Shown here: in pieces, positions 13,440-31,081 of the stretch
Layout: the number at the start of each line of letters is the position of its first letter
How positions within the stretch are numbered: position 1 is the stretch's first letter
From: Promethearchaeia archaeon
Lineage (GTDB): Archaea > Asgardarchaeota > Lokiarchaeia > Sigyniarchaeales > SOKP01
Assembly (NCBI GenBank): GCA_029856125.1
Contig: JAHQWJ010000034.1
Span: forward strand, 1 to 47,129
Length of the DNA: 47,129 bases
Reading direction: 5' to 3'
Position numbers and translations under genes: made by a program
Notes under the pieces: generated by a model
The model's database searches: none
The model's input: the letters and a program-made list of their open reading frames with translations, nothing else
What the model was told of the DNA's origin: nothing

Positions 13440-14594
13440 CTATCTATATTCTTCTGCTCTTCTTGATTTTCTGTTGCTAAAACTAATAATTTGAGCAATC
13501 ATTTTAGATTTTTCGACAGACGTATTTAATTCAACAGGTTCCCTAATATATCCTTTATTTAAAGCAAGGTTATATATTTTCTCTCCAGCCTCAGTGCGAA
13601 TTAATGTTGTTGTTAATCCTTGTTTAGAGGCTATGCCCCCAAAAGAAATATCTGAGTAATAATTAGTAAAGTTTTCACATACCCTACATGCATTTCTCAT
13701 AACATCTTGTAGCTCTGAAAATTCTATTGTCAGCGGCTTATCCCTATTTTTGAGATTTATAATTAAGTTTTCCTTAATATTCATCTTTTCAATATCGTTA
13801 AAAGAAATGTGAAACCTTTCTTCGATTTTCGCTCGAACAACTTCGTCAAATTTAAAATTTTCATAACAAAAAAGACCTAAGGTGTACTCAACTACATGAG
13901 CCGGTATTATTTTTAATTCTTGCATTTTTCTTATGGAGTGAATTTGACAAGGAACCCCAACTACAGCAATTTTGATCTTGTCTGTCTGAACCACCCTTTT
14001 TAACTCTGTAATTGTAGGAACGAAAGTGTTATATTTTCCTAACTCTGAAACAGGACCTTCTATGTTATAGTTCGTTCCTATCGCATCTATAATATCTTGC
14101 TTATTTTTAGCAAAGAAAGGAGTTCTTTGAAAGGGACCTACTTTTTTTGATACAATCGCTGCATCAATTAAATTGTTTTCTAATAAGGCAATTAATATTG
14201 CTGTAACCACTCCTCCATCAGTAGCAAACTGTTGTATCTGAGGATCGCTAGCTTGAGCTGTGGCTATTTTAGTCCAGTTACCTATTGGGGGTTTGAAATT
14301 AAATTTCTCGTTTAATTCTTTGTCTAATTCGTGAATTTCGGGGCAGATTAAATAGCAAATACCACAATGTAGGCAATTATCTTCATTGGAATAATAAGGT
14401 AACCCACTTGCCGAGATATCAATGGCTCCTATTTCCGCAGCTGAACAAAAACTGACACATCCTCCGCATTCTCCACATATTCCCTTTTCATGAACTTCTT
14501 TAATAAGATCTTTAAACGATTTAGGTTTTACTTCATTTTCTTTATAGAATCGTTCTTCTGTCAAATCTCGGAACACTCGTAGTATCTTTTTCAC
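13440..14594 (-). CDS. Coenzyme F420 hydrogenase/dehydrogenase beta subunit family protein (FrhB/FdhB/FpoF-like) with N-terminal 2x[4Fe-4S] domain
   Basis: CGECGGCVSFC, CLHCGICYLICP, ATDGGVVTAIL, VVGVPCQI, GLFCYENF, ACRVCENF, DISFGG; GTG start. Confidence 0.92.
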   Translation of the reverse strand: MKKILRVFRDLTEERFYKENEVKPKSFKDLIKEVHEKGICGECGGCVSFCSAAEIGAIDISASGLPYYSNEDNCLHCGICYLICPEIHELDKELNEKFNFKPPIGNWTKIATAQASDPQIQQFATDGGVVTAILIALLENNLIDAAIVSKKVGPFQRTPFFAKNKQDIIDAIGTNYNIEGPVSELGKYNTFVPTITELKRVVQTDKIKIAVVGVPCQIHSIRKMQELKIIPAHVVEYTLGLFCYENFKFDEVVRAKIEERFHISFNDIEKMNIKENLIINLKNRDKPLTIEFSELQDVMRNACRVCENFTNYYSDISFGGIASKQGLTTTLIRTEAGEKIYNLALNKGYIREPVELNTSVEKSKMIAQIISFSNRKSRRAEEYR

Positions 14595-14780
14595 TTATTA
14601 ATTATTATTTATTTCGTAAGATTCAAAACTGCAAGTTAAACTTCTAATTGCTATAAATAAAAATAAGGTTATCAGTTATAAGATTACCCATCAAAATTAT
14701 TTTATTCAATGAAAAATATATAATTTTTACTTGATTTGGTGTATTTATTTTAATAGAATACATTTTTCAGTATTTTTTTA

Positions 14781-14794
14781 ATGATTATAATCAT
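14781..14794. promoter_or_regulatory. Perfect 14-bp palindrome ATGATTATAATCAT near the centre of the frhB/hdrA divergent promoter region
   Basis: Seen directly; core GATTATAATC recurs upstream of the second metV. Confidence 0.4.
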
Positions 14795-14967
14795 AAATTC
14801 ACACTTTTTTATTTAATTTAATAATAATTATATATATTATGATCGGTTATTATTATTTCATTAAAAAATATAATTAAAAACGTCAGAAAGAAGCGTTATT
14901 AACTTAAATGTCGTAAGAAATTCCACACTTTTTAAAAATTATCTTTGTTCGCATTTGGTGTAATCAT

Positions 14968-16263
14968 TTGACCAATAAAATTAAAAGTGTTATGGTAGTT
15001 GGGGCAGGTATTGCCGGGATCCAAGCCTCATTAGATTTAGCTGAAAGAGGCATAAAAGTTGAGTTAGTTGAGAAGAATGCGTGTATAGGAGGAAGAATGG
15101 CTCAACTAGACAAAACATTTCCGACGAATGATTGCTCGATTTGTATTTTAGCTCCAAAACTTGCAGAGTGTTCTCGACATCCCAACATAACTCTGCATGT
15201 GCTCTCTGAAGTTCAAAGTGTTGAGGGTTCTGCTGGAAATTTTACTGTAAAAGTCTTAAAACACGCCCGATATGTTAAAGAAGATGAGTGTATTAATTGC
15301 GGAATCTGCGTTGAAAAATGTCCAATGAGAGTAGAAGACGATTTTGATATGCAATTAAGAAAACGTAGGGCAATCTATATTGATTATGTTCAAGGTGTCC
15401 CAGCAATTATGTCTATTGATAAAGAAAAATGCCTATGGTTTACAAAATCAGCCTGTCGAATCTGTGAGAAAGTTTGTGAGAGAGAAGCCATAGACTTCGA
15501 ACAAGAAGATAAGGAAATAGAATTGAATATTGCATCTATCATTGTTGCCACAGGCTATGATGTTTTTGACCCTACAGCAATTAGTTATTTAGGATATGGA
15601 CGGCTCCCAAATGTTGTAACTTCTTTAGAGTTTGAGCGGATGATTAGCGCTTCAGGACCTCTTGGAGGGCATTTAACGCGACCTTTTGATCAAAAAGAAC
15701 CGAAAAATCTAGCTTTTATTAACTGCGTTGGTTCTAGGGATATAAAAAATAATCCTTATTGTTCTTCTTGTTGTTGTATGTATACAACCAAAGAAGCTAT
15801 GATTGCTTATGAACATAATAGTAACATTCGAACTTCGATATTTTATATTGATCTTAGAGCTGGTGGTAAGGGCTTTCGAGATTATATTCAAAGAGGATGC
15901 GACGATTATGCAATTACTTACATTAAAGGAAAAGTAGCAAAAATTTTGCAGGACGAACAAAGAAATCCAATTGTTTTTTATGAAGATACAGACACATTTG
16001 AGGTAAAACAGCCAAAATTTGACTTAGTTGTCTTAGCAACGAGTATGGTCCCTAAAAAAGACGCTGTAAGAATGTCAGAAATTTTAGGTATAAATGTAGA
16101 TGATTGTAATTTTTTCAAGAGTATGACCTACCATCCGCAAAAATCCTCTAAAGAGGGTATCTTCCTCTGTGGCACTTGTAGAGCGCCAATGGATATTCCA
16201 AACTCAGTAGTTGATGCAAGTGGAGCTGCAGCTAAAGCAGCTGAAATAGTGATGAGGGTATAG
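14968..16263 (+). CDS. hdrA: HdrA-like flavoprotein, module 1 (FAD domain with inserted ferredoxin)
   Basis: VVGAGIAG, LDKTFPTNDCSIC, two CxxCxxCxxxC motifs, EFER, CVGSRD, YCSSCCCMYTTK; TTG start. Confidence 0.93.
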   Translation: MTNKIKSVMVVGAGIAGIQASLDLAERGIKVELVEKNACIGGRMAQLDKTFPTNDCSICILAPKLAECSRHPNITLHVLSEVQSVEGSAGNFTVKVLKHARYVKEDECINCGICVEKCPMRVEDDFDMQLRKRRAIYIDYVQGVPAIMSIDKEKCLWFTKSACRICEKVCEREAIDFEQEDKEIELNIASIIVATGYDVFDPTAISYLGYGRLPNVVTSLEFERMISASGPLGGHLTRPFDQKEPKNLAFINCVGSRDIKNNPYCSSCCCMYTTKEAMIAYEHNSNIRTSIFYIDLRAGGKGFRDYIQRGCDDYAITYIKGKVAKILQDEQRNPIVFYEDTDTFEVKQPKFDLVVLATSMVPKKDAVRMSEILGINVDDCNFFKSMTYHPQKSSKEGIFLCGTCRAPMDIPNSVVDASGAAAKAAEIVMRV

Positions 16264-16267
16264 GTAA

Positions 16268-17935
16268 ATGACAAATGACGATATAAGAATTGGTGTATTT
16301 GTATGTCATTGTGGAACTAATATTGGGGGTATATTAGATGTTCCTTCGTTAGCAGATTATGCAAGAACTTTACCGAATGTAACTTATTCAGCTGATAATC
16401 TTTATACTTGTTCTGAAGTAGGATTAACTGACATTAAGGAAAATATAAAAGAGCACAAGTTAAACAGAGTTATCGTAGCTTCATGCTCTCCTAGAACTCA
16501 TGAACCTTTATTTAGATCTATTTGTCAAGAGGCTGGTATAAATCCATACTTATTCGAAATGGTTAATATAAGAGATCAGGATTCTTGGGTTCACATGAAA
16601 GAACCAGAAAAAGGAACGGAAAAAGCGAAGGACCTTATTAGAATGAGCGTCCATAAAGCAGCTTTACTTGAACCATTAGAAAGAGTAAAAGTTGCAATTA
16701 CGCACTCAGCTGTCATAATAGGTGGTGGAATTTCCGGGATGACAGCTGCGTTAAATTTGGGAAATCAAGGTTTTAAAATATATTTAATCGAAAAGGAACC
16801 AGAATTAGGAGGGCTCCTTAAGTCTTTAAATAAAGTATTTCCATCCAATGAGGATGCGTCAAAATTATTGGAGAGTAGAGAAATAATTGAATCTCACGAT
16901 AATATATATGTTTACAAATCATCAATTATAGAAAATATTACTGGATTTGTTGGAAATTATAAAGTTATTATAAAACAGAATAAGAAAAACATTGATATAG
17001 ATGCTGGGGTAATTATCGTTGCGACTGGAGCTATTCCTTTATCTCCGGAGGGCTATTTTGGATACGATAATAAAAATATTATAAGCCAGCTGGATTTAGA
17101 AAGTCTCCTAAAAAATGATCAAGTTAAAGCTAACAATATTACTATGATATTGTGCGTTGGATGCAGAAATGAGGAGAGAGGATATTGCTCAAATATCTGT
17201 TGTATGAACGCTATTAAAAATGCGATGTTAATAATCGAGAAAAATTCGAATGCTCATATTACAATATTGTTTCGAGATATACAAACACCTGGGACAGTAT
17301 ATGAAAATTATTATAGAAAAGCCAGAGAATTGGGTATTCTTTTTATAAATTATCTGCCTGAAAAGCCACCAGTTATTAAAAAAGATGTAGTAGATGTGTA
17401 TAGTGACTTATTGAATCAAGATATTAAAATACCGCAAGATCTCGTAGTTTTATCAACTCCACTGATTGCAAACGAGGATTCGGAAGTACTTGCGAAAATG
17501 TTAAAAGTACCATTAGGAGAAAATAAGTTCTATTTGGAAGCTCATGTGAAATTAAGACCAGTCGATTTTTCTACTGATGGTGTTTATGTTTGTGGGTCAG
17601 CACATTGGCCAGCAGATATTGCTGAAAGTACGAGTCAAGCAAATGCTGCCGCTTCGCGAGCTTCTACAATTTTATGGAGAGATCATTTGGAAGTAGAAGG
17701 GTCAACAGCAGAAGTTGAAACAGAATTATGTATTGGGTGCGAAGCTTGTATTAGAATCTGTCCCTACAACGCAATCACAAAAGATGAAGAAACAGATACA
17801 GCTATTGTGAACAAAGTAATGTGTAAAGGATGCGGATTATGTGGTGCAAGTTGTCCTAAAAATGCAATAATTATTCATCATTTTACAAGCGACCAAATAC
17901 GAGCAGAAATTTTCACATACGGAGGTGAAATATAA
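16268..17935 (+). CDS. hdrA: HdrA-like flavoprotein, module 2 (N-terminal Fe-S, FAD domain, C-terminal ferredoxin)
   Basis: RIGVFVCHCGTNI, ASCSPRTHE, NIRDQDSWVH, IIGGGISG, YCSNICC, EAHVKLRP, two C-terminal CxxCxxCxxxCP. Confidence 0.93.
   Translation: MTNDDIRIGVFVCHCGTNIGGILDVPSLADYARTLPNVTYSADNLYTCSEVGLTDIKENIKEHKLNRVIVASCSPRTHEPLFRSICQEAGINPYLFEMVNIRDQDSWVHMKEPEKGTEKAKDLIRMSVHKAALLEPLERVKVAITHSAVIIGGGISGMTAALNLGNQGFKIYLIEKEPELGGLLKSLNKVFPSNEDASKLLESREIIESHDNIYVYKSSIIENITGFVGNYKVIIKQNKKNIDIDAGVIIVATGAIPLSPEGYFGYDNKNIISQLDLESLLKNDQVKANNITMILCVGCRNEERGYCSNICCMNAIKNAMLIIEKNSNAHITILFRDIQTPGTVYENYYRKARELGILFINYLPEKPPVIKKDVVDVYSDLLNQDIKIPQDLVVLSTPLIANEDSEVLAKMLKVPLGENKFYLEAHVKLRPVDFSTDGVYVCGSAHWPADIAESTSQANAAASRASTILWRDHLEVEGSTAEVETELCIGCEACIRICPYNAITKDEETDTAIVNKVMCKGCGLCGASCPKNAIIIHHFTSDQIRAEIFTYGGEI
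17921..17927 (+). promoter_or_regulatory. Shine-Dalgarno GGAGGTG embedded in the hdrA 3' end, 8 nt before ATA 17936
   Basis: Full-consensus SD at canonical spacing to ATA 17936; too far from TTG 17957. Confidence 0.7.
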
Positions 17936-18712
17936 ATACCATTCGAACCTAAAATTTTGGGATTTTTATGTAATTGGTGTTCGTATGCTGGTGCTGATCT
18001 AGCAGGGGTGAGTCGAATTCAGTATCCTACCAATATTAGGATTATTCGAGTAATGTGTTCAGGTAGGGTTGATCCAACATTCGTTGCTGATGCTTTCCTG
18101 CATGGAATTGATGGAGTGCTTGTACTAGGTTGCCATTTAGGGGATTGTCACTACATAACTGGCAATTACGAAGCTGAAATAAAAATGAGTACGCTAAGTA
18201 GGTTATTAAGTATTGTGAAGTTTTCTGATAGAATGCGCCTTGATTGGGTTTCTGCTGCAGAAGGAAACCGATTTGCCCAAATAGTATCGGACTTTACAAA
18301 ACATATACAAGAATTAGGGCCATCTCCAATAAAAGAAAGTAAAAATAAAACTCAAATTATTGATGATCTCGAAGCTGTTAAAAGCGTTTTAGAGAGTACA
18401 CGACTTCGAGGTTTAACCGCTCGCCAAAGGGATTTAGTTACTGAAAAAAATGTATATGGGAATCAAATAACAGCCGAAAAGTTTGAAAATCTTCTTAATG
18501 ATGCCATCAATAACGAATTTTTTCGCCATAAAATAGTTATAAAAATAAAAGAAATTGGTAAATCCGTTCCGGATATAGCAAATGAACTTGGCATTAAAGC
18601 TAAGGAAGTCTTGGAGCATATCGTTGTTTTAAGATCGCGAGGCTTAGTGGATGTTTATGAAATTAACGAGGAAATTCCAACATTTATTTCAATTCAGGAG
18701 GGAAAAGAATGA
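17936..18712 (+). CDS. mvhD: MvhD/FlpD-type [2Fe-2S] subunit with C-terminal winged-helix extension; probable ATA start
   Basis: (M)PFEPKILGFLCNWCSYAGADLAG, RVMCSGRVDP, GCHLGDCHY..GN, WVSAAEG; the conserved FEPKI lies upstream of the track's TTG start. Confidence 0.88.
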   Translation: MPFEPKILGFLCNWCSYAGADLAGVSRIQYPTNIRIIRVMCSGRVDPTFVADAFLHGIDGVLVLGCHLGDCHYITGNYEAEIKMSTLSRLLSIVKFSDRMRLDWVSAAEGNRFAQIVSDFTKHIQELGPSPIKESKNKTQIIDDLEAVKSVLESTRLRGLTARQRDLVTEKNVYGNQITAEKFENLLNDAINNEFFRHKIVIKIKEIGKSVPDIANELGIKAKEVLEHIVVLRSRGLVDVYEINEEIPTFISIQEGKE

Positions 18713-21700
18713 AAAAGATAGGTTCAGTTCTCGTTGTTGGAGGCGGAATTGCGGGTATACAAGCTTCTATGGATATGGCTGATTCTGGATACAAAGTATA
18801 TCTAGTAGAATCAACGATGAGCATTGGAGGTGTGATGTCCCAGTTGGATAAAACATTTCCGACTAATGATTGTGCTATTTGCATTCTCGCTCCTAAATTA
18901 GTAGCCGCAGGGCGTCACGAAAATATAACTCTCTTAATTAATTCAACTCTCAAAAAAGTTTCAGGAAATCCTGGTAATTTTACAGTAAATTTAAAACAAA
19001 AATCATTGTTTTTAGACCAAGAAACATGTACTGGTTGTGGTGTTTGCGCTCAAGAATGTCCTGTAGAAGCAGTGGACTTTTTTAACGAAGGATTAGCTAA
19101 AAGAGCTGCGATATCCGTAAAATTCCCCCAAGCAGTCCCTTTAGTTTTTTCAATTGATCAAGATTTATGTATAGGGTGTGGGTTTTGCGAAGGTGTATGT
19201 AAAGCTAAGGCTATAGATTACACGCTTGAAGATAAAACAACCACGCTTAATGTAGGTGCTATAGTTTTAGCTCCTGGATTTGACGAATATGATCCTTCTC
19301 CAACGCAACATTATGGATACGGGAAATATCCTAATGTAGTTACTAGCATTCAATTTGAACGTATATTAAGCGCGAGTGGCCCTCACTCAGGACTCATTCT
19401 TAGACCATCAGACGGGATAATACCAAAAAAGATCGCATTCTTACAATGCGTAGGCTCTAGAGATAAAAAGCACGGTGGTGAATATTGTTCTTCAGTTTGC
19501 TGCATGTACTCTGCTAAGGAAGCAGTTATTGCCAAAGAACATATGCCAATCGTTCAACCAACCATATTTTCAATGGATATAAGGGCTTGTGGAAAAGATT
19601 TTGATAAATATATTGATCGTGCTCAAGAAGAATATGGAGTAAAATATATCCGAAGTAGAATTTCAACAGTAAAAGAGATTCCCGAATCAAACGATTTAAT
19701 TCTTAACTATGAATCTGAAGATGGGAAGATAATTGACGATGTTTTTAACTTAGTAGTTCTAGCAGTAGGGGCGATGCCAAATGGAAGTAATAAAGAGTTA
19801 GCGAAAACACTAAAGATCGATTTGAATGACGATTTATTCTGCAAGACAAAACCTTTCTCTCCAGTAGAAACATCTCGAGAAGGAATTTATGTTTGTGGAA
19901 TGTTTTCAGAACCAAAAGATATTCCAGAAACTGTGGTTGAAGCCAGTGCCGCTGCTGGAGCTGTCAATGTTTTATTGTATGAAGTTAGAAATACATTAAT
20001 CACCGAAAAAAAGCTTCCGAAAGAGATTGATAATATTGGAGAGCCCCCTCGAATTGGAGTTTTTGTGTGTCATTGTGGGATCAATATTGCAGGTGTTGTT
20101 GATGTTGCTGATGTTGTAGACTATGCGAGTAAATTACCAAATGTAATTTATGCTGAAAGAAATTTATATACTTGCTCAGCCGACACCCAAACAACTATAA
20201 AAGAAAAAATTAAGGAGTATAAGTTAAATCGAGTAATAGTTGCTTCATGTACACCTAGGACGCACGAACCGTTATTTCAAGCAACCATTAGGGAAGCGGG
20301 ATTGAACAAGTATTTATTTGATTTGGCCAATATTCGAGATCAATGTTCATGGGTACACATGCATGAGCCCAAAGAAGCCACAGAAAAATCTAAAGACTTA
20401 GTAAGAATGGCAATTGCCAAAGCTCGTAATTTAGTACCATTACAAGAACAACAAGTTCCAGTAATACATAAAGGAATGGTGATTGGCGGAGGTGTTTCAG
20501 GAATGACAGCAGCCTTGAATTTAGCAAATCAAGGGTTTGAAGTGTTTCTTGTCGAGAAAAGTGATAGATTAGGTGGGTTTTCAACTAATATCTATCAAAC
20601 TATTGAAAATTATGACGTTCAAGAACTTATTGCAGGTTTAATAAAAAAAGTTAACGATCATAAACTTATCAACGTTTTCCTTAATGCTAAAATCAATTCA
20701 ATTGGGGGATATGTTTGTAATTTCACAACTAATATAGATTTTGGAAAAAATAAAGAAAAAAAGGAATTTCAACACGGTATTATAATTGTCGCTACTGGTG
20801 CTTACGAGTATAAACCAAAGGATGGAGAATTTCTTTATGGCAAAACAGATAATGTAATACTGCAATCTGACCTTGAAAAAGTGCTTTTTACCGATTCAGA
20901 ACAAATCAAGGGTTTAAAAACAATAGTAATGATACAATGTGTTGGATCTAGAAATGAAGAAAATCCCTATTGTAGTAGAATGTGTTGTTCAGAAGCAATA
21001 AAAAACGCAATAAAAGCAAAGGAAATTAATTCAAAATTAAATGTTATCGTTTTATTCAGAGATATAAGGACATATGGTTTTAAGGAGAAATATTACAACA
21101 TAGCGAGAGAAAAGGGAATCGTTTTTCTTCGATTTGATAATGATTTTCTCCCTGAAATCGTTCAAAAGGAAACGGAATTGAGCATAGATGTTGTTGCATC
21201 TAGAGGGGATAAAATTACTATCAATGCAGATTTAGTGGTATTAAGCGCTGGCATTGTTTCTGGTGGCGAAGGAAACGAAACTTTAGCAAAGATGTTAAAG
21301 GTACCCACTAACAATGAGAAATTCTTTTTAGAGGCTCACGTAAAATTAAGACCTTCAGATTTCGCAACTGACGGAATTTTTTTATGCGGGACCGCCAGAG
21401 GAAGCGCTACGATTAGTGAAAGTATTGCACAAGCATTATCGGCAGCATCGAGAGCTACTACAATATTATCAAAAGACATTTTGGTTACAGAAGGTGTAAT
21501 TTCAAAAGTCGATCCCGCATTATGTATTGGCTGTAATAAGTGTGCCGATGTATGTAGTTATGGAGCTGTTGGTGTTAAGTACGAACAAGGATTGATGATC
21601 TCCGAAGTTAATCCCTTATTATGTAAGGGTTGCGGAGATTGTGCTGCTGAATGCCCTGCTGGGGCAATTACGATGAGCCATTTCGGAAACACCCAAATTG

Positions 21701-22173
21701 AGCCAATGATAGCTGAAGCAGCTCGCGTTGAATTCGATAATGGTCGCCCAAGAATTATTGCTTTTCTCTGCAATTGGTGTAGTTATGCGGGAGCAGACTT
21801 AGCGGGAGTAAGTAGGTATCAATATCCTCCAAACGTAAGAACTATAAGAGTAATGTGTTCTGGCGGAATCTCCAAAAGCTTTATCTTACAAGCATTTTTA
21901 GAAGGAGCGGATGGAGTTTTTGTAGGGGGGTGTCATATTGGAGATTGTCATTATATTGCCGGAAATCATGACGCCTTAAGAAGGACACTTGAAATTGAAT
22001 CGGAACTTGAATCAATAGGAATAAATCCAGATAGATTTATGCGTAAGTGGGTATCTGCGAGCGAAGGTAAAATCTTCTCAAATACGATGACAGAATTTGT
22101 TGGGAAAATAAAAAAATTGGGTCCTCTTGAATCGGACCTCAAAAAAAAATCAACAACAATAATTGCGAAATAA
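18709..22173 (+). CDS. hdrA: Fused HdrA-HdrA-MvhD flavo-iron-sulfur protein
   Basis: Two GxGxxG FAD domains, TFPTNDC, internal RIGVFVCHCGINI, four ferredoxin motifs, C-terminal FLCNWCSYAGADLAG...GCHIGDCHY; GGAGG SD and ATGA overlap. Confidence 0.94.
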   Translation: MKKIGSVLVVGGGIAGIQASMDMADSGYKVYLVESTMSIGGVMSQLDKTFPTNDCAICILAPKLVAAGRHENITLLINSTLKKVSGNPGNFTVNLKQKSLFLDQETCTGCGVCAQECPVEAVDFFNEGLAKRAAISVKFPQAVPLVFSIDQDLCIGCGFCEGVCKAKAIDYTLEDKTTTLNVGAIVLAPGFDEYDPSPTQHYGYGKYPNVVTSIQFERILSASGPHSGLILRPSDGIIPKKIAFLQCVGSRDKKHGGEYCSSVCCMYSAKEAVIAKEHMPIVQPTIFSMDIRACGKDFDKYIDRAQEEYGVKYIRSRISTVKEIPESNDLILNYESEDGKIIDDVFNLVVLAVGAMPNGSNKELAKTLKIDLNDDLFCKTKPFSPVETSREGIYVCGMFSEPKDIPETVVEASAAAGAVNVLLYEVRNTLITEKKLPKEIDNIGEPPRIGVFVCHCGINIAGVVDVADVVDYASKLPNVIYAERNLYTCSADTQTTIKEKIKEYKLNRVIVASCTPRTHEPLFQATIREAGLNKYLFDLANIRDQCSWVHMHEPKEATEKSKDLVRMAIAKARNLVPLQEQQVPVIHKGMVIGGGVSGMTAALNLANQGFEVFLVEKSDRLGGFSTNIYQTIENYDVQELIAGLIKKVNDHKLINVFLNAKINSIGGYVCNFTTNIDFGKNKEKKEFQHGIIIVATGAYEYKPKDGEFLYGKTDNVILQSDLEKVLFTDSEQIKGLKTIVMIQCVGSRNEENPYCSRMCCSEAIKNAIKAKEINSKLNVIVLFRDIRTYGFKEKYYNIAREKGIVFLRFDNDFLPEIVQKETELSIDVVASRGDKITINADLVVLSAGIVSGGEGNETLAKMLKVPTNNEKFFLEAHVKLRPSDFATDGIFLCGTARGSATISESIAQALSAASRATTILSKDILVTEGVISKVDPALCIGCNKCADVCSYGAVGVKYEQGLMISEVNPLLCKGCGDCAAECPAGAITMSHFGNTQIEPMIAEAARVEFDNGRPRIIAFLCNWCSYAGADLAGVSRYQYPPNVRTIRVMCSGGISKSFILQAFLEGADGVFVGGCHIGDCHYIAGNHDALRRTLEIESELESIGINPDRFMRKWVSASEGKIFSNTMTEFVGKIKKLGPLESDLKKKSTTIIAK

Positions 22174-22206
22174 TAAATTATGTTTAAAATAAAGGAGTTA
22201 TGAGAA

Positions 22207-22902
22207 ATGATAATTACGCAACAAAAAAATATTGAAGAAATATACAATATGGTAAAACAATATTCAAAAATTTTAGTTACCGGGTGTGATGGTTGCTGTC
22301 AGCCTCCGCGCTCGATCAACGAGGCTAAAGTGCTAGCCCAGATGCTAGAATTAAAGGCTCGAAGCGAAGGAAAGGAACTAAAATGGAAAGCTATAACAGT
22401 ACTTAGGCAATGTGACGATAGAATCGCAGCAACTACCGTTCGACCTTTTATTGAGCAATATGATGCGATAGTATCGTTGTCCTGTGGATTAGGCGTCGTC
22501 ATGATGAACCGAATATTTGAAAATATTCTTACCTACCCTGCTCAAAATAGCATGTTTGGAGGAGCAGAAAATAATGCAGAAAATACTTTTGCTGAATACT
22601 GTGAAACTTGCGGAGAGTGTTTACTTGGCGTTACTGGTGGAGTGTGTCCTATGGCAGGATGTGCTAAAAATTTGAGTAACGGGCCATGTGGTGGAACAGT
22701 TAACGGTAAATGCGAAGTTGGTGGATATGTACACGAGTGTGCTTGGATTAAAATATACGAACGCCTTAAAAAATTTAATAGAATGGATCTTTTTACTAAA
22801 TACCGTCCGCCAAGAAACTATAAAATTTGGTCAAGTCCACGGTTTATTGATATTAATAAAACTTATACAAACGAAGAAGAACCAATAAAGGAGGAGAAGT
22901 AA
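22207..22902 (+). CDS. metV: Methylenetetrahydrofolate reductase small Fe-S subunit (MetV, MTHFR_C domain)
   Basis: GCDGC, RQCD, SCGLGV, CETCGEC.L..TGGVCP..CAK.L.NGPCGG...KCEV...CAW..IY.RL. Confidence 0.9.
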   Translation: MIITQQKNIEEIYNMVKQYSKILVTGCDGCCQPPRSINEAKVLAQMLELKARSEGKELKWKAITVLRQCDDRIAATTVRPFIEQYDAIVSLSCGLGVVMMNRIFENILTYPAQNSMFGGAENNAENTFAEYCETCGECLLGVTGGVCPMAGCAKNLSNGPCGGTVNGKCEVGGYVHECAWIKIYERLKKFNRMDLFTKYRPPRNYKIWSSPRFIDINKTYTNEEEPIKEEK

Positions 22903-22905
22903 AGA

Positions 22906-23844
22906 ATGGCAAAAAGACCGGCATATAGTAATTTAGTAAAAACTATGAGGGAAGGTAAATTTTTATTTACTGGTGAATTAGAGCCAAAAAAAATGGTTGA
23001 TTTGTCTTCTATTCTGCATTCTGCCGAAGAAATGAAGAAAACGGGAAAAATAGTTGCTGCTAATGTAACAGATGGACCACAAGGAGATGCTTATACTTGT
23101 TCCATGGTTCCTTGCTACTTAGTTCAAGAAAAAGTTGGTTTAGAATCAATTTGGCAGATGACCGTTCGAGATAGAAATCGAATTGCCTTATTTGGCGATA
23201 TATTGGGTGGAGCGATACTTGGCTTAAAAAATATGCTTGCTTTAACGGGAGATCATTCTGCTCTTGGAGATCATCAAAATGCGAGAGCTGTATACGATTT
23301 AGACTCTACACAGTTAATTGATCTCGTTTCTAAAATGGTAGATGATGGTACTGATTTAGAGGGAAAAGAAATTGAAGGCGGGAAAATTGAAATGAATGTG
23401 GGATGCGCCGCTAATCCAAATTCAAACCCAAGAGAACCAGAAATCTTAAAAGTAGGAAGAAAGGTAGAAGTTGGTGCCGATTTCATTCAAACTCAAACAT
23501 CTTTTGACATAGATGATGCCAAAGAATTCCTTAAAGAATTAGAAAGATTCAATATTCCTGTTTTACTAGGGTTATTTCCTATAAAAAATTACGGAATTGC
23601 TTGGTATTTTAACGAATATATTCCTGGTGTTTCAGTTCCAAAGGATCTCCTGAAAGCATTAAAGACTGCAAAGAAAGAGTACAAAGAAGATAAAAAAAAG
23701 CGGAATGAAGTTATCGATAAGATTAATATTGACTTTTTTGAACCATTTATCAAGGAAATTCAGAAAACCACTAAGGCTGCAGGTATACATTGCATGGCTG
23801 TGCATTACGAAAGATTATTTGAGCCTTTATTAAAGAACTTCTAA
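22906..23844 (+). CDS. metF: Methylenetetrahydrofolate reductase catalytic subunit
   Basis: TGELEP, ANVTD, QMTVRDRNRIAL, LALTGDH, DLDS, KVEVGADFIQTQ, PGVSVP, GIHCM. Confidence 0.92.
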   Translation: MAKRPAYSNLVKTMREGKFLFTGELEPKKMVDLSSILHSAEEMKKTGKIVAANVTDGPQGDAYTCSMVPCYLVQEKVGLESIWQMTVRDRNRIALFGDILGGAILGLKNMLALTGDHSALGDHQNARAVYDLDSTQLIDLVSKMVDDGTDLEGKEIEGGKIEMNVGCAANPNSNPREPEILKVGRKVEVGADFIQTQTSFDIDDAKEFLKELERFNIPVLLGLFPIKNYGIAWYFNEYIPGVSVPKDLLKALKTAKKEYKEDKKKRNEVIDKINIDFFEPFIKEIQKTTKAAGIHCMAVHYERLFEPLLKNF

Positions 23845-23920
23845 AAATAAATGATGAGTAAAACAAAATCGTGATAAAATTATTTAAAAAATTTTATCCA
23901 CAAAAAAAGGTGAAATGTAA

Positions 23921-24382
23921 ATGAAAAATTTAGATGAAAAGGATAAATGTATATTAGAAATGCTTATAGCTGATTCACGACGTCCATACAGAGAGATAGC
24001 TGACGAAGTAGGATTGTCCGAATCAACAATAAGAAAGCGAGTAATTAAATTACAAGAAGAGAAAGTAATTGAAAAATTCACGATTAAGGTATGTAGAGAG
24101 GACGAGCGTTGCATTATAGCATTTATCACATTAATCCCGAGAAGTCAATCTGAATTAAAGTTATTATTACGCGAGACTCAAGTTCTTCCTCAGTGTGAAG
24201 AGGTTTATTTTCTAGCTGGAGAATGTGGAATTCTCGTCAAAGTAAATGTTCCAGAAATAAATGAACTGGATGCAGTTATCGAAAGTTTTAGAGGTAGAAG
24301 TGATGTCAAAGGCGTAGAACGAGTTTGTGTTGTGTTAAAACCAATTAAGACTGTCTCTCAAAATGAGAAACTGTTAATTTAA
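23921..24382 (+). CDS. Lrp/AsnC family transcriptional regulator (six Cys)
   Basis: LDEKDKCILEMLIADSRRPYREIADEVGLSESTIRKRV wHTH plus RAM domain; AGGTGA SD. Confidence 0.92.
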   Translation: MKNLDEKDKCILEMLIADSRRPYREIADEVGLSESTIRKRVIKLQEEKVIEKFTIKVCREDERCIIAFITLIPRSQSELKLLLRETQVLPQCEEVYFLAGECGILVKVNVPEINELDAVIESFRGRSDVKGVERVCVVLKPIKTVSQNEKLLI

Positions 24383-29471: not shown

Positions 29472-30143
29472 ATGGTTGTAATAACTACAAAAAAACCAGA
29501 GGAAGAAGTTTTTGAAGCTCTTAATAATTATCAAGTAAAAAATGTATTAGTTGTGAGCTGTGGAGTTTGTGCGGCTCTCTGTCAAACAGGAGGGAGTGAA
29601 GGGGCTGAAGAATGGTCGGAAAAACTAAAAGAAAGAGGTTTTAATGTTACCAATGCAATTGTGAGCGAAGATGTTTGCGATAACCGCGTGATGAAAAAAG
29701 ATTTACGCAAGATTGATGAGGATGTTAAAAAATCTGACGCTATTTTAACGCTAGCCTGCGGTTTAGGAGTACAATCAATTATTCAAGTTCTTTCAAAAAA
29801 TCATCCAGAAATACCTGTTTTTACGGCTAATAACACTGAGTTTATAGGTATGACAGAGCGCATCGGACGCTTTTATATGCGCTGTCAAGGGTGTGGAGAC
29901 TGTTTATTAAACGAAACTGGTGGAATTTGTCCTGTAACAACTTGCGCGAAAGCGCTTATGAATGGTCCTTGCGGTGGAATGGTTGATAGTAAGTGTGAAG
30001 TGGGTAACTACGAGAAAGATTGTGGATGGGTATTGATTTATAATCGTTTGAAAGAATTAGGACGTTTGGATTTGTTCGCAAAATTAAGAGACCCCTTAGA
30101 TTGGAGTGATATTGGTCATCAAAGAGAAGTCGTTTGGAGGTAG
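29472..30143 (+). CDS. metV: MetV paralogue 2 (MTHFR small Fe-S subunit)
   Basis: SCGVCAALCQTGG, ACGLGVQ, CQGCGDC.L.ETGGICP..CAK.LMNGPCGG...KCEV...DCGW. Confidence 0.92.
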   Translation: MVVITTKKPEEEVFEALNNYQVKNVLVVSCGVCAALCQTGGSEGAEEWSEKLKERGFNVTNAIVSEDVCDNRVMKKDLRKIDEDVKKSDAILTLACGLGVQSIIQVLSKNHPEIPVFTANNTEFIGMTERIGRFYMRCQGCGDCLLNETGGICPVTTCAKALMNGPCGGMVDSKCEVGNYEKDCGWVLIYNRLKELGRLDLFAKLRDPLDWSDIGHQREVVWR

Positions 30144-30145
30144 AG

Positions 30146-31081
30146 ATGAAAATGACAGAAATAAAAACATATTCCAAATTAGGTGAAGCTATCGCAAAGG
30201 GTGAATTTGTATTAACTGGAGAACTTGAACCTGAAAAGACAACAGATCTTTCCCACACGATCCAAGAAGCCAAAGAGATGGCTCCATATGTTATTGCCGC
30301 AAATGTGACAGATAGTCCTTTAGGAATTGTAACAATTAATTCTATGGCTGCGACGCATTTAATCCAAAAAGCAACCGGTTTAGAATGCGTTTGGCAAATG
30401 ACTGTGAGGGATGTTAATAAGTTAGGAATTGCTGGAATGATAATGGGTGCACACGCTCTAGGGATACGCAACGTACTTGCCCTTACAGGAGACCACACAG
30501 CCTTAGGCGATATGCCCGAATCCAAGCCAGTTTTTGATCTTGACTCTGCAACTCTTATAAAGTTAGTGAGAGACATGGTTGATAGTGGTGCTATTAACGG
30601 CAATGAAATCGAAGCACCTCCAACATTACACGTCGGTGGGGCTGCCAATCCTAATGCTGAACCAATGGGTGCAGAAATATTAAAAATCGGTAGAAAAGCA
30701 GAAGCGGGTTGCGAATTTATACAAACTCAAGTTGTTTACGACCTCGATCGTACTATAGAGTTTTTAACAGAAATTAGGAAGTATAAAGTGCCGATATTAC
30801 TTGGAATCTTTCCTATGAAGTCGTATGGAATTGCGAAAGGTTTTGACACGTTTGTGCCCGGCGTAAGCGTCCCTAAAGAGATTTTAGCTAAGTGGAAGAG
30901 CGTAAAGAAAGAAATTACCGATAAAAAGGAGCGGAAAGCATTATACGATCAATATAATTACGATTTCTTTAAACCCTTCATATCTGAATTGCGGAAAAAA
31001 AATCTACTCGACGGAGTCCATTGTATGGCAGTGCATTACCCTCGAATTTTTCCAAAATTAGACAGTATTATCAACGGATAA
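30146..31081 (+). CDS. metF: MetF paralogue 2 (methylenetetrahydrofolate reductase)
   Basis: TGELEP, ANVTDSP, QMTVRD, LALTGDH, FDLDS, FIQTQ, GVHCM; GGAGGT SD favours ATG 30146 or 30152. Confidence 0.92.
   Translation: MKMTEIKTYSKLGEAIAKGEFVLTGELEPEKTTDLSHTIQEAKEMAPYVIAANVTDSPLGIVTINSMAATHLIQKATGLECVWQMTVRDVNKLGIAGMIMGAHALGIRNVLALTGDHTALGDMPESKPVFDLDSATLIKLVRDMVDSGAINGNEIEAPPTLHVGGAANPNAEPMGAEILKIGRKAEAGCEFIQTQVVYDLDRTIEFLTEIRKYKVPILLGIFPMKSYGIAKGFDTFVPGVSVPKEILAKWKSVKKEITDKKERKALYDQYNYDFFKPFISELRKKNLLDGVHCMAVHYPRIFPKLDSIING

Follow-up and report, generated by a model that had tools for sequence, protein, structure and literature searches.

A candidate Hdr-type methylene-tetrahydropterin reductase without hdrCB in a Lokiarchaeia-type Asgard archaeon

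A fourth type of methylene-tetrahydrofolate reductase (MTHFR), in which the catalytic proteins MetFV are joined to HdrCBA and MvhD, has been known for more than ten years from Moorella thermoacetica and Sporomusa ovata. Its mechanism and its second redox partner are unsolved (PMC9430772, with Mock et al. 2014 as cited there), and so is the role of HdrBC within it. This Hdr-type enzyme is the closest known system to an operon that is described here from an Asgard archaeon. The operon lies on a 47-kb contig (JAHQWJ010000034.1, here C34), the entire length of which is the window of this analysis. The genome that holds it (G000) comprises 3.69 Mb and is 99% complete; its nearest public relatives are metagenome-assembled genomes of Promethearchaeota/Promethearchaeia, that is, of Loki-type Asgard archaea. 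With moderate confidence, we read the operon as an Asgard (Lokiarchaeia-type) Hdr-type methylene-tetrahydropterin reductase in a derived form left after loss of hdrC and hdrB, probably linked to F420 and predicted to be the enzyme of the Mer step.

The resemblance to the Moorella and Sporomusa enzymes begins with gene order. Here, as there, metV and metF lie side by side and share a tight, co-oriented cluster with hdrA and mvhD, with which they are co-transcribed in the bacteria. There, MetVF is an iron-sulfur/flavin core, and HdrA is built as two thioredoxin-reductase-like modules with complementary domain loss, just as in the window. Families were assigned by Pfam and NCBIfam profile matches. 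MetF (22906-23844, plus strand; 312 aa) matches the Pfam family MTHFR (PF02219) at 3.4e-31, with 109 bits against a cut-off of 24. The adjoining MetV (22207-22902, plus strand; 231 aa with 13 Cys) matches DUF5981, the MTHFR C-terminal family, at 6.1e-30, with 103 bits against a cut-off of 23. Upstream on the same strand lie hdrA' (14968-16263), hdrA'' (16268-17935), a long mvhD (17936-18712; Pfam FlpD 2.7e-50; first canonical start TTG at 17957, giving 251 aa), and a fused gene hdrA'-hdrA''-mvhD (18709-22173; 1154 aa, with FlpD at residues 1016-1138). A gene for an Lrp/AsnC-family regulator (lrp, 23921-24382, plus strand; Pfam HTH_AsnC-type 6.8e-14 and AsnC_trans_reg) follows metF.

The operon also departs from the bacterial enzymes in several respects. 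It lacks hdrC and hdrB, which are present in most Asgard relatives. It carries four HdrA modules where Moorella and Sporomusa have two, and its HdrA' keeps an inserted ferredoxin domain that is missing in bacterial HdrA. Further, it has no GltD/NAD(P)H insert, a FrhB-type gene is adjacent, and the host is an archaeon with a tetrahydromethanopterin (H4MPT) pathway.

The intergenic gaps from hdrA' through lrp are 4, 21, -4, 33, 3, and 76 nt (with mvhD taken from TTG 17957), and a GGAGG- or GGTG-like motif stands upstream of every gene. An earlier sequence-only reading of this DNA had already called the gene order, the tight spacing with Shine-Dalgarno motifs, and the absence of HdrB, HdrC, and hydrogenase from the window. 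All three calls hold. The open reading frames and their families were confirmed, the gaps run from -4 to 33 nt through metF, and profile and tblastn searches of the window's contig found neither a CCG (HdrB) domain nor anything like HdrC or a [NiFe] hydrogenase.

Divergent from the operon, as that reading had it, is the frhB-like gene (13440-14594, minus strand; 384 aa; Pfam FrhB_FdhB_C 1.4e-36, FrhB_FdhB_N 2.6e-16, N-terminal Fer4). It had been called a "lone" gene; the genome as a whole encodes 11 members of the FrhB family, this one included. The region between frhB and hdrA' (14595-14967) comprises 373 nt at 18% G+C. Alignment with four related loci (L011, L013-L015) shows conserved A/T-rich blocks in it, including TATA-like stretches; an operator is not assignable.

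Other described systems share parts of this design. The HdrABC-MvhAGD complex of Methanothermococcus thermolithotrophicus (PDB 5ODC) has all of the HdrA flavin and cluster ligands that are kept here, and it, too, uses MvhD as the entry adaptor. The asymmetric HdrA heterodimers proposed for anaerobic methanotrophic (ANME) archaea show the same complementarity, between tandem or fused copies, of N-terminal domain and Cys197 (PMC9012536). Unlike either of these, the window encodes no HdrBC, hydrogenase, or heterodisulfide chemistry, and its high-potential module is presumably MetVF. HdrA2B2C2 of Methanosarcina acetivorans resembles it in having an HdrA-MvhD fusion, and provides biochemical precedent for F420H2 as a bifurcation donor (PMC5296606); there, however, the acceptor is CoM-S-S-CoB via HdrB2C2, and neither FrhB nor MetVF takes part. 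The FrhB-like protein, in turn, has counterparts in FwdI and CODH zeta of Ca. Ethanoperedens thermophilum (8RJA, 8RIU; PMC11493965), which combine a 2x[4Fe-4S] ferredoxin domain with a FrhB-like FAD/[4Fe-4S] domain in approximately 360-380 aa. Those subunits dock on Fwd and on carbon monoxide dehydrogenase (CODH), whereas the predicted partner of the window FrhB is Hdr. A further case is metFV-hdrA-mvhD of Ca. Syntrophoarchaeum, where a MetF of the type found in uncultured archaea is tied to HdrA and MvhD in a host without Mer. The same hypothesis applies there and to the ANME-1-type MetF proposed to replace Mer, namely a MetF that works on H4MPT and supplies a bifurcating or confurcating complex (PMC9012536). 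The window differs from it in its Asgard lineage, its doubled HdrA block, its linked FrhB, and its natural variants with and without hdrCB. Within the full-text library that was searched, no paper describes an Asgard Hdr-MetVF operon, and only general statements were found.

Aligned to 5ODC HdrA (whose residue numbers are used throughout) and to each other, all four HdrA modules retain GxGxxG, the Glu356 position, Cys386/399/403/404, and Lys409. At the Glu356 position the motifs are EFER, QFER, DLES, and DLEK; at Lys409 they are CMYTTK, CMYSAK, CMNAIK, and CSEAIK. These are exactly the flavin motifs that the sequence-only reading had listed. The count of four also stands, but the modules are not like units; they form two complementary pairs.

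The product of hdrA' (431 aa) matches residues 145-562 of 5ODC_A (E 9e-126) and positions 139-561 of NCBIfam HdrA2. It has the thioredoxin-reductase-like FAD domain and the inserted ferredoxin domain, with Cys194/Cys197 (TNDCSIC), and lacks the N-terminal and C-terminal ferredoxin domains. The product of hdrA'' (555 aa) matches residues 3-242 and 317-644 of 5ODC_A. It has the N-terminal cluster domain, the FAD domain, and the C-terminal 2x[4Fe-4S] ferredoxin domain, but lacks Cys194/197 and the inserted ferredoxin domain. The two are mirror images, in the split pair as in the fused pair, and the 5ODC-type set of N-terminal cluster domain, Cys197, inserted ferredoxin domain, and C-terminal ferredoxin domain is complete only per HdrA'/HdrA'' pair. 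This complementarity rules out four equivalent bifurcating HdrA units. The fused protein matches 5ODC_A in three stretches, plus 5ODC_D (MvhD); it also exceeds the NF040770 (HdrA2) cut-off (1174.5 versus 1100 bits), a score that sums two HdrA modules and speaks for likeness at the level of architecture only.

The same complementarity of N-terminal domain and Cys197 occurs in tandem or fused HdrA of ANME archaea and in Moorella HdrA, where Chadwick et al. read it as an asymmetric heterodimer (PMC9012536). By this parallel, hdrA'' is predicted to encode the heterodimer partner of hdrA', and the operon thus encodes a split and a fused unit of heterodimer type, both of them provided with an MvhD.

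The relatives of the operon place it in a series. A scan anchored on MetF delivered 80 species loci in which MetF is 64-96% identical to that of the window; these were typed by tblastn and Pfam, with typing of L012, L016, L037, L039, L043, and L088 restricted by short contigs. The set of metV-metF-lrp and an upstream HdrA'A''-MvhD gene is kept in approximately 75 of the 80 loci, and lrp follows metF in nearly all. In the commonest layout (type I, 49 loci), a fused hdrA'A''mvhD gene is followed by hdrC, hdrB, metV, metF, and lrp, the same gene set as in Moorella. The 18 type II loci run hdrC, hdrB, hdrA', hdrA'', mvhD, fused gene, metV, metF, lrp, with a divergent frhB visible in 11. The window and four other loci (L011, L013, L014, L015) make up type III, which is the type II layout minus hdrC-hdrB; the position between frhB and hdrA', intergenic in the window, is the site of hdrC-hdrB in type II relatives.

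Two further layouts also lack hdrCB. In type IV (L009, L010), MetF is 96% identical to that of the window and the neighbourhood of thermosome, PEPCK, and GTPase genes is the same, with a 910-aa protein (L009:6545-9277; L010) replacing frhB and the four-HdrA region at the same genomic position. That protein combines a short HdrA-like FAD stretch, GltD/NfnB-like Fer4_20 and Pyr_redox_2 domains, a ferredoxin domain, and MvhD, an architecture that points to a change of donor, to one of NAD(P)H type. The second, L031 (5499-9999), is minimal: a fused HdrA'A''-MvhD gene and metV-metF, preceded by a 96-aa remnant of mvhD and by half an hdrC match, and neither frhB nor hdrB at the locus.

Elsewhere, the operon includes hdrC-hdrB (67 of 74 informative related loci), which are missing only from type III, type IV, and L031. 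In a tree of MetV and MetF (FastTree, midpoint root), the type I loci make up a paraphyletic base, and a single derived clade unites types II, III, and IV, with type IV as the sister of the window. Distribution and tree together argue that the HdrBC-free state is a recent loss, and not the ground plan of the enzyme family. Misassembly does not explain the missing genes, as the same frhB/hdrA' junction is found in four other species assemblies (L011, L013, L014, L015). By tblastn, no hdrC or hdrB remnant was found in that intergenic region or in the window. HdrA module trees, also made with FastTree and midpoint rooting, add that both the split and the fused pair of the window have as sisters their counterparts at a paralogous locus of contig C61, with the type I fused gene a separate lineage. 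This pattern argues that the four-HdrA block was copied as a unit and placed ahead of metVF.

These results bear on two claims of the sequence-only reading. It had described the enzyme as HdrBC-free, with MetVF replacing HdrBC as the high-potential partner. Neither is supported as the general design of the family: the hdrCB-less forms belong to a derived clade, most relatives keep hdrCB beside metVF, and an hdrC-hdrB pair on C61 could act in trans.

What pterin, then, would such an enzyme reduce? The genome encodes RFAP synthase, Ftr, Mch, Mtd, CdhC of the CODH/acetyl-CoA synthase (CODH/ACS), and FolD, and H4MPT biosynthesis is present. Mer was not found in it (best match 83 bits versus a cut-off of 348.7), nor was Fhs. 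In the phylum sample, Mer exceeds its cut-off in 38 of 101 genomes, and in none of the 14 from the window's family (f1). The Hdr-linked MetF type (at least 72% identity) has the opposite distribution, being found in all 14 sampled genomes of that family and in no other; the 14 are kin, of course, and the co-occurrence is in effect one event. An H4MPT branch with Ftr, Mch, Mtd, and CODH/ACS that lacks both Mer and Fhs makes it the more probable reading that MetVF acts on methylene-H4MPT. Thus, the Hdr-linked MetVF probably fills the Mer step; MetF itself is not a Mer, and would only do the same job. Service in a bacterial folate branch is unlikely, and the bacterial-type folate Wood-Ljungdahl branch that the sequence-only reading had proposed is not borne out by these genes.

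An ANME-1-type MetF, which clusters with Asgard sequences, has been proposed to replace Mer on H4MPT (PMC9012536). The genes metF, folD, and fhs are described from cultured Asgard strains (PMC12222021). The window itself has a second metV-metF pair, at 29472-30143 and 30134-31081, whose MetF is 49% identical to the Hdr-linked one. This second MetF type (45-53% identity) also occurs in Mer-holding Asgard families, often within a few kb of mer (G012, G043, G017, G028).

The proposed link to F420 runs through FrhB. Its N-terminal 2x[4Fe-4S] ferredoxin domain has Cys40/43/46/50 and Cys74/77/80/84, and four further Cys (216, 243, 303, 306) lie in FrhB_N/FrhB_C. FrhB_C and FrhB_N exceed their Pfam thresholds (126 and 60 bits versus cut-offs of 23 and 22), with 12 Cys in the expected motifs. 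The best solved relatives are F420-reductase plug-in subunits, FwdI (8RJA_E, 5.7e-44) and CODH zeta (8RIU_B, 4.9e-36). F420 biosynthesis is represented in the genome by CofH, CofD, and CofE, all over their cut-offs, and the F420-dependent Mtd is encoded as well. Indirectly, by the F420 genes of the genome and by proven F420 reductases as best solved relatives, the window FrhB is a predicted F420 reductase.

Neighbourhoods point the same way in part. Orthologues of FrhB (66-70% identity) occur with this four-HdrA block in operons of two kinds. In one, frhB is terminal and co-directional (hdrA'-hdrA''-mvhD-hdrAA-mvhD-flxC-flxB-flxA-frhB); in the other, it is divergent from the type II operon (hdrCB-A'-A''-D-AAD-metVF). 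Within the genome, seven of the 11 FrhB genes abut hdrA. At loci L082 and L083, a different FrhB paralogue is co-directional with the fused hdrA gene and overlaps its start. A functional tie between the divergent FrhB and the operon is thus plausible, and to this extent the F420 link proposed from the sequence stands. The linkage is far from general, however: frhB is adjacent at only 17 of the 72 loci with a judgeable upstream gene (four of type III, 11 of type II, and two of type I, the last with the other paralogue). FrhB is therefore likely a port, and an optional one. A complex prediction for FrhB with the long MvhD scored zero and counts neither way.

The catalytic core of the enzyme is MetF together with MetV, its iron-sulfur partner, and in each HdrA pair both Cys197 and the inserted domain that binds ferredoxin come from HdrA'. 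If the operon does encode an F420-linked enzyme of the Mer step, methylene/methyl-pterin interconversion at MetVF would be coupled to ferredoxin, at the HdrA' inserted domains, and to a two-electron carrier entering via MvhD. That carrier would most likely be F420, with the FrhB-type F420 reductase of the divergent gene as its enzyme, and the physiological substrate would probably be methylene-H4MPT. Without hdrCB, electrons from the HdrA Cys386/399/403/404 cluster would pass straight to MetV.

That MetVF can be wired without HdrBC is argued by three things taken together: the three different hdrCB-less layouts (type III, type IV, L031), which keep MetVF intact; the retained four-Cys cluster of HdrA; and pull-downs in Sporomusa ovata, where MetV bound HdrA and MetF, and not HdrB (PMC9430772). 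The most specific form of this proposal is a naturally HdrBC-free bifurcating or confurcating enzyme, in which MetV sits on HdrA at HdrC's place, FrhB exchanges the F420 hydride, and the inserted domains handle ferredoxin. It is tentative and, taken whole, a doubtful one. Of the Asgard complex that the sequence-only reading had proposed, coupling F420H2 and ferredoxin to pterin chemistry, the association of MetVF with HdrA and MvhD and the intact bifurcation-type flavin sites remain; replacement of HdrBC as a general rule is not supported, and the folate branch is unlikely.

Several considerations weigh against an F420-linked enzyme of the Mer step. The E0' of methylene-H4MPT is approximately -320 mV and that of F420 is -340 to -380 mV; with methylene-H4MPT as sole high-potential acceptor, the reduction of ferredoxin is out of reach for F420H2. 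Reductive bifurcation therefore requires a folate-like potential or another acceptor, failing which the complex would run as oxidative confurcation; the further acceptor may be what HdrBC provides in relatives. The pterin specificity of MetF is not legible from its sequence, and the enzyme that stands in for Mer could be the second MetVF pair. As for FrhB, its family also holds non-F420 enzymes (BciB, HCAR), and the window protein falls under the NCBIfam equivalog cut-offs (173 versus 269 for PRK09325, 149.5 versus 331.5 for TIGR03289, 105.7 versus 475 for FpoF) and belongs to an Asgard paralogue group of its own. Its gene is on the opposite strand and is missing at the metVF locus in most relatives, including 47 of the 49 type I loci and five type II genomes that were checked directly, where the best frhB adjoins another hdrA locus. 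FrhB might, then, be a mere neighbour, with H2 (via an Mvh hydrogenase on MvhD), NAD(P)H, or reduced ferredoxin alone as the donor, or with HdrA2-like modules that bind F420 unaided. The genome does encode two [NiFe] hydrogenase large subunits next to hdr genes (C18 and C106), a GltD/NfnB-like-MvhD protein is used instead in the nearest MetVF relatives (L009/L010), and the HdrA2 of M. acetivorans, an HdrA-MvhD fusion, oxidises F420H2 without FrhB (PMC5296606). Set against this are the retention of the divergent frhB in 15 species (four type III and 11 type II loci), the overlapping co-directional paralogue of L082/L083, the orthologues operonic with the same four-HdrA block, and the number of FrhB genes that abut hdrA. 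On these grounds a bystander FrhB is possible, if on the doubtful side.

The window might also be HdrBC-free in appearance only, its complex still of HdrABC type with HdrC and HdrB supplied in trans. Candidates exist: other contigs of the genome hold 34 CCG-domain matches, and the best match to operon-type hdrCB (tblastn) is an hdrC-hdrB pair on C61, 56-59% identical and standing beside a paralogous frhB-A'-A''-D-AAD block, a further point that counts against our preference. The Cys386/399/403/404 cluster that all four HdrA modules retain is the HdrC feeder in 5ODC, and the great majority of related loci keep hdrCB in the operon. Yet the C61 pair stands with a cognate HdrA block of its own, and no orthologue-grade copy of hdrCB was found in the genome by tblastn; across type II and type III loci, the remaining operon genes share 74-91% identity. 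Moreover, hdrCB-less layouts persist in at least seven species, two of them with a wholly different donor protein. Supply in trans we regard as unlikely. Less probable still is an anabolic, folate-specific MTHFR that makes methyl groups for methionine and the like, its Hdr modules a ferredoxin-level electron wire without energy coupling. FolD is encoded, Methanosarcina use MetFV anabolically (PMC9012536), and the MetVF of S. ovata (PMC9430772) and, reportedly, of Clostridium ljungdahlii (PMC8515935) use reduced ferredoxin without bifurcation in vitro. However, four bifurcation-type flavin sites and two MvhD domains would be a large investment for a wire; Fhs was not found, Mer is missing from an otherwise present H4MPT branch with CODH/ACS, and the Hdr-linked MetF type is found exactly in the Mer-less family. 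An anabolic wire is therefore quite improbable.

The main value of the window is as part of a natural series of hdrBC deletions and swaps. On one MetVF core, Asgard archaea combine hdrCB either with a fused HdrA pair or with a four-HdrA block and FrhB; others carry the same block minus hdrCB (the window), a fused HdrA pair alone, or a GltD-like NAD(P)H-type donor. Biochemical comparison of these forms could reveal the role of HdrBC, the identity of the donor, and whether H4MPT is the substrate of MetF. The series also bears on how Mer-less Lokiarchaeia-type archaea run and energise the Wood-Ljungdahl pathway, which is central to models of Asgard metabolism and of eukaryogenesis.

A smaller matter is where mvhD begins. 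The genes hdrA'' and mvhD share one frame, with a single TAA between them; the next codon is ATA in the window, ATT in L014 and L015, and ATG in other relatives, and MvhD homologues have 256-258 aa and begin MxFEPKILGF. By the TAA-ATG junction of the relatives, the window mvhD probably starts at ATA 17936, straight after the hdrA'' stop, with a gap of 0 nt. Its translation would then probably begin at a non-canonical codon or by coupled re-initiation. The stand-alone MvhD also has a conserved C-terminal extension of approximately 125 aa that resembles a winged helix (weak Pfam HTH matches at residues 190-233). This extension (18320-18712; MvhD residues ~130-251, GKSVPEI...LRARGLVD) is typical of the stand-alone MvhD of four-HdrA blocks; neither the fused MvhD domains nor the MvhD of methanogens have it, and it may serve in docking.

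Elsewhere in the window, the second metVF pair is followed (to 34119) by genes for a 3-hydroxyacyl-CoA dehydrogenase and then an Lpd-like pyridine-nucleotide-disulfide oxidoreductase. Other contigs of the genome hold further hdr loci. One on C106 (2278-12827) has a [NiFe] hydrogenase large subunit, hdrA, and mvhD within approximately 10 kb of mtd and ftr, and is thus a second hdr locus tied to the H4MPT branch; a second Ftr-like match, with one in-frame TGA, lies at C142:60916-61356. Paralogous four-HdrA loci occur on C61 (L091), C29 (L092), C95 (L089), C131 (L090), and C97 (L093). That on C61 has the order hdrC-hdrB-frhB-hdrA'-hdrA''-mvhD-fusion, and C29 is a near-duplicate fragment of it, both being broken at the same point of the fused gene. 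On C95, the four-HdrA block is followed by mvhD, two Flx-like polyferredoxins, and an FAD/NAD-binding FlxA-like gene, with frhB terminal in the relatives L095, L099, and L100; operons of this type may encode an F420/NAD(P)H/ferredoxin complex of Flx-Hdr type.

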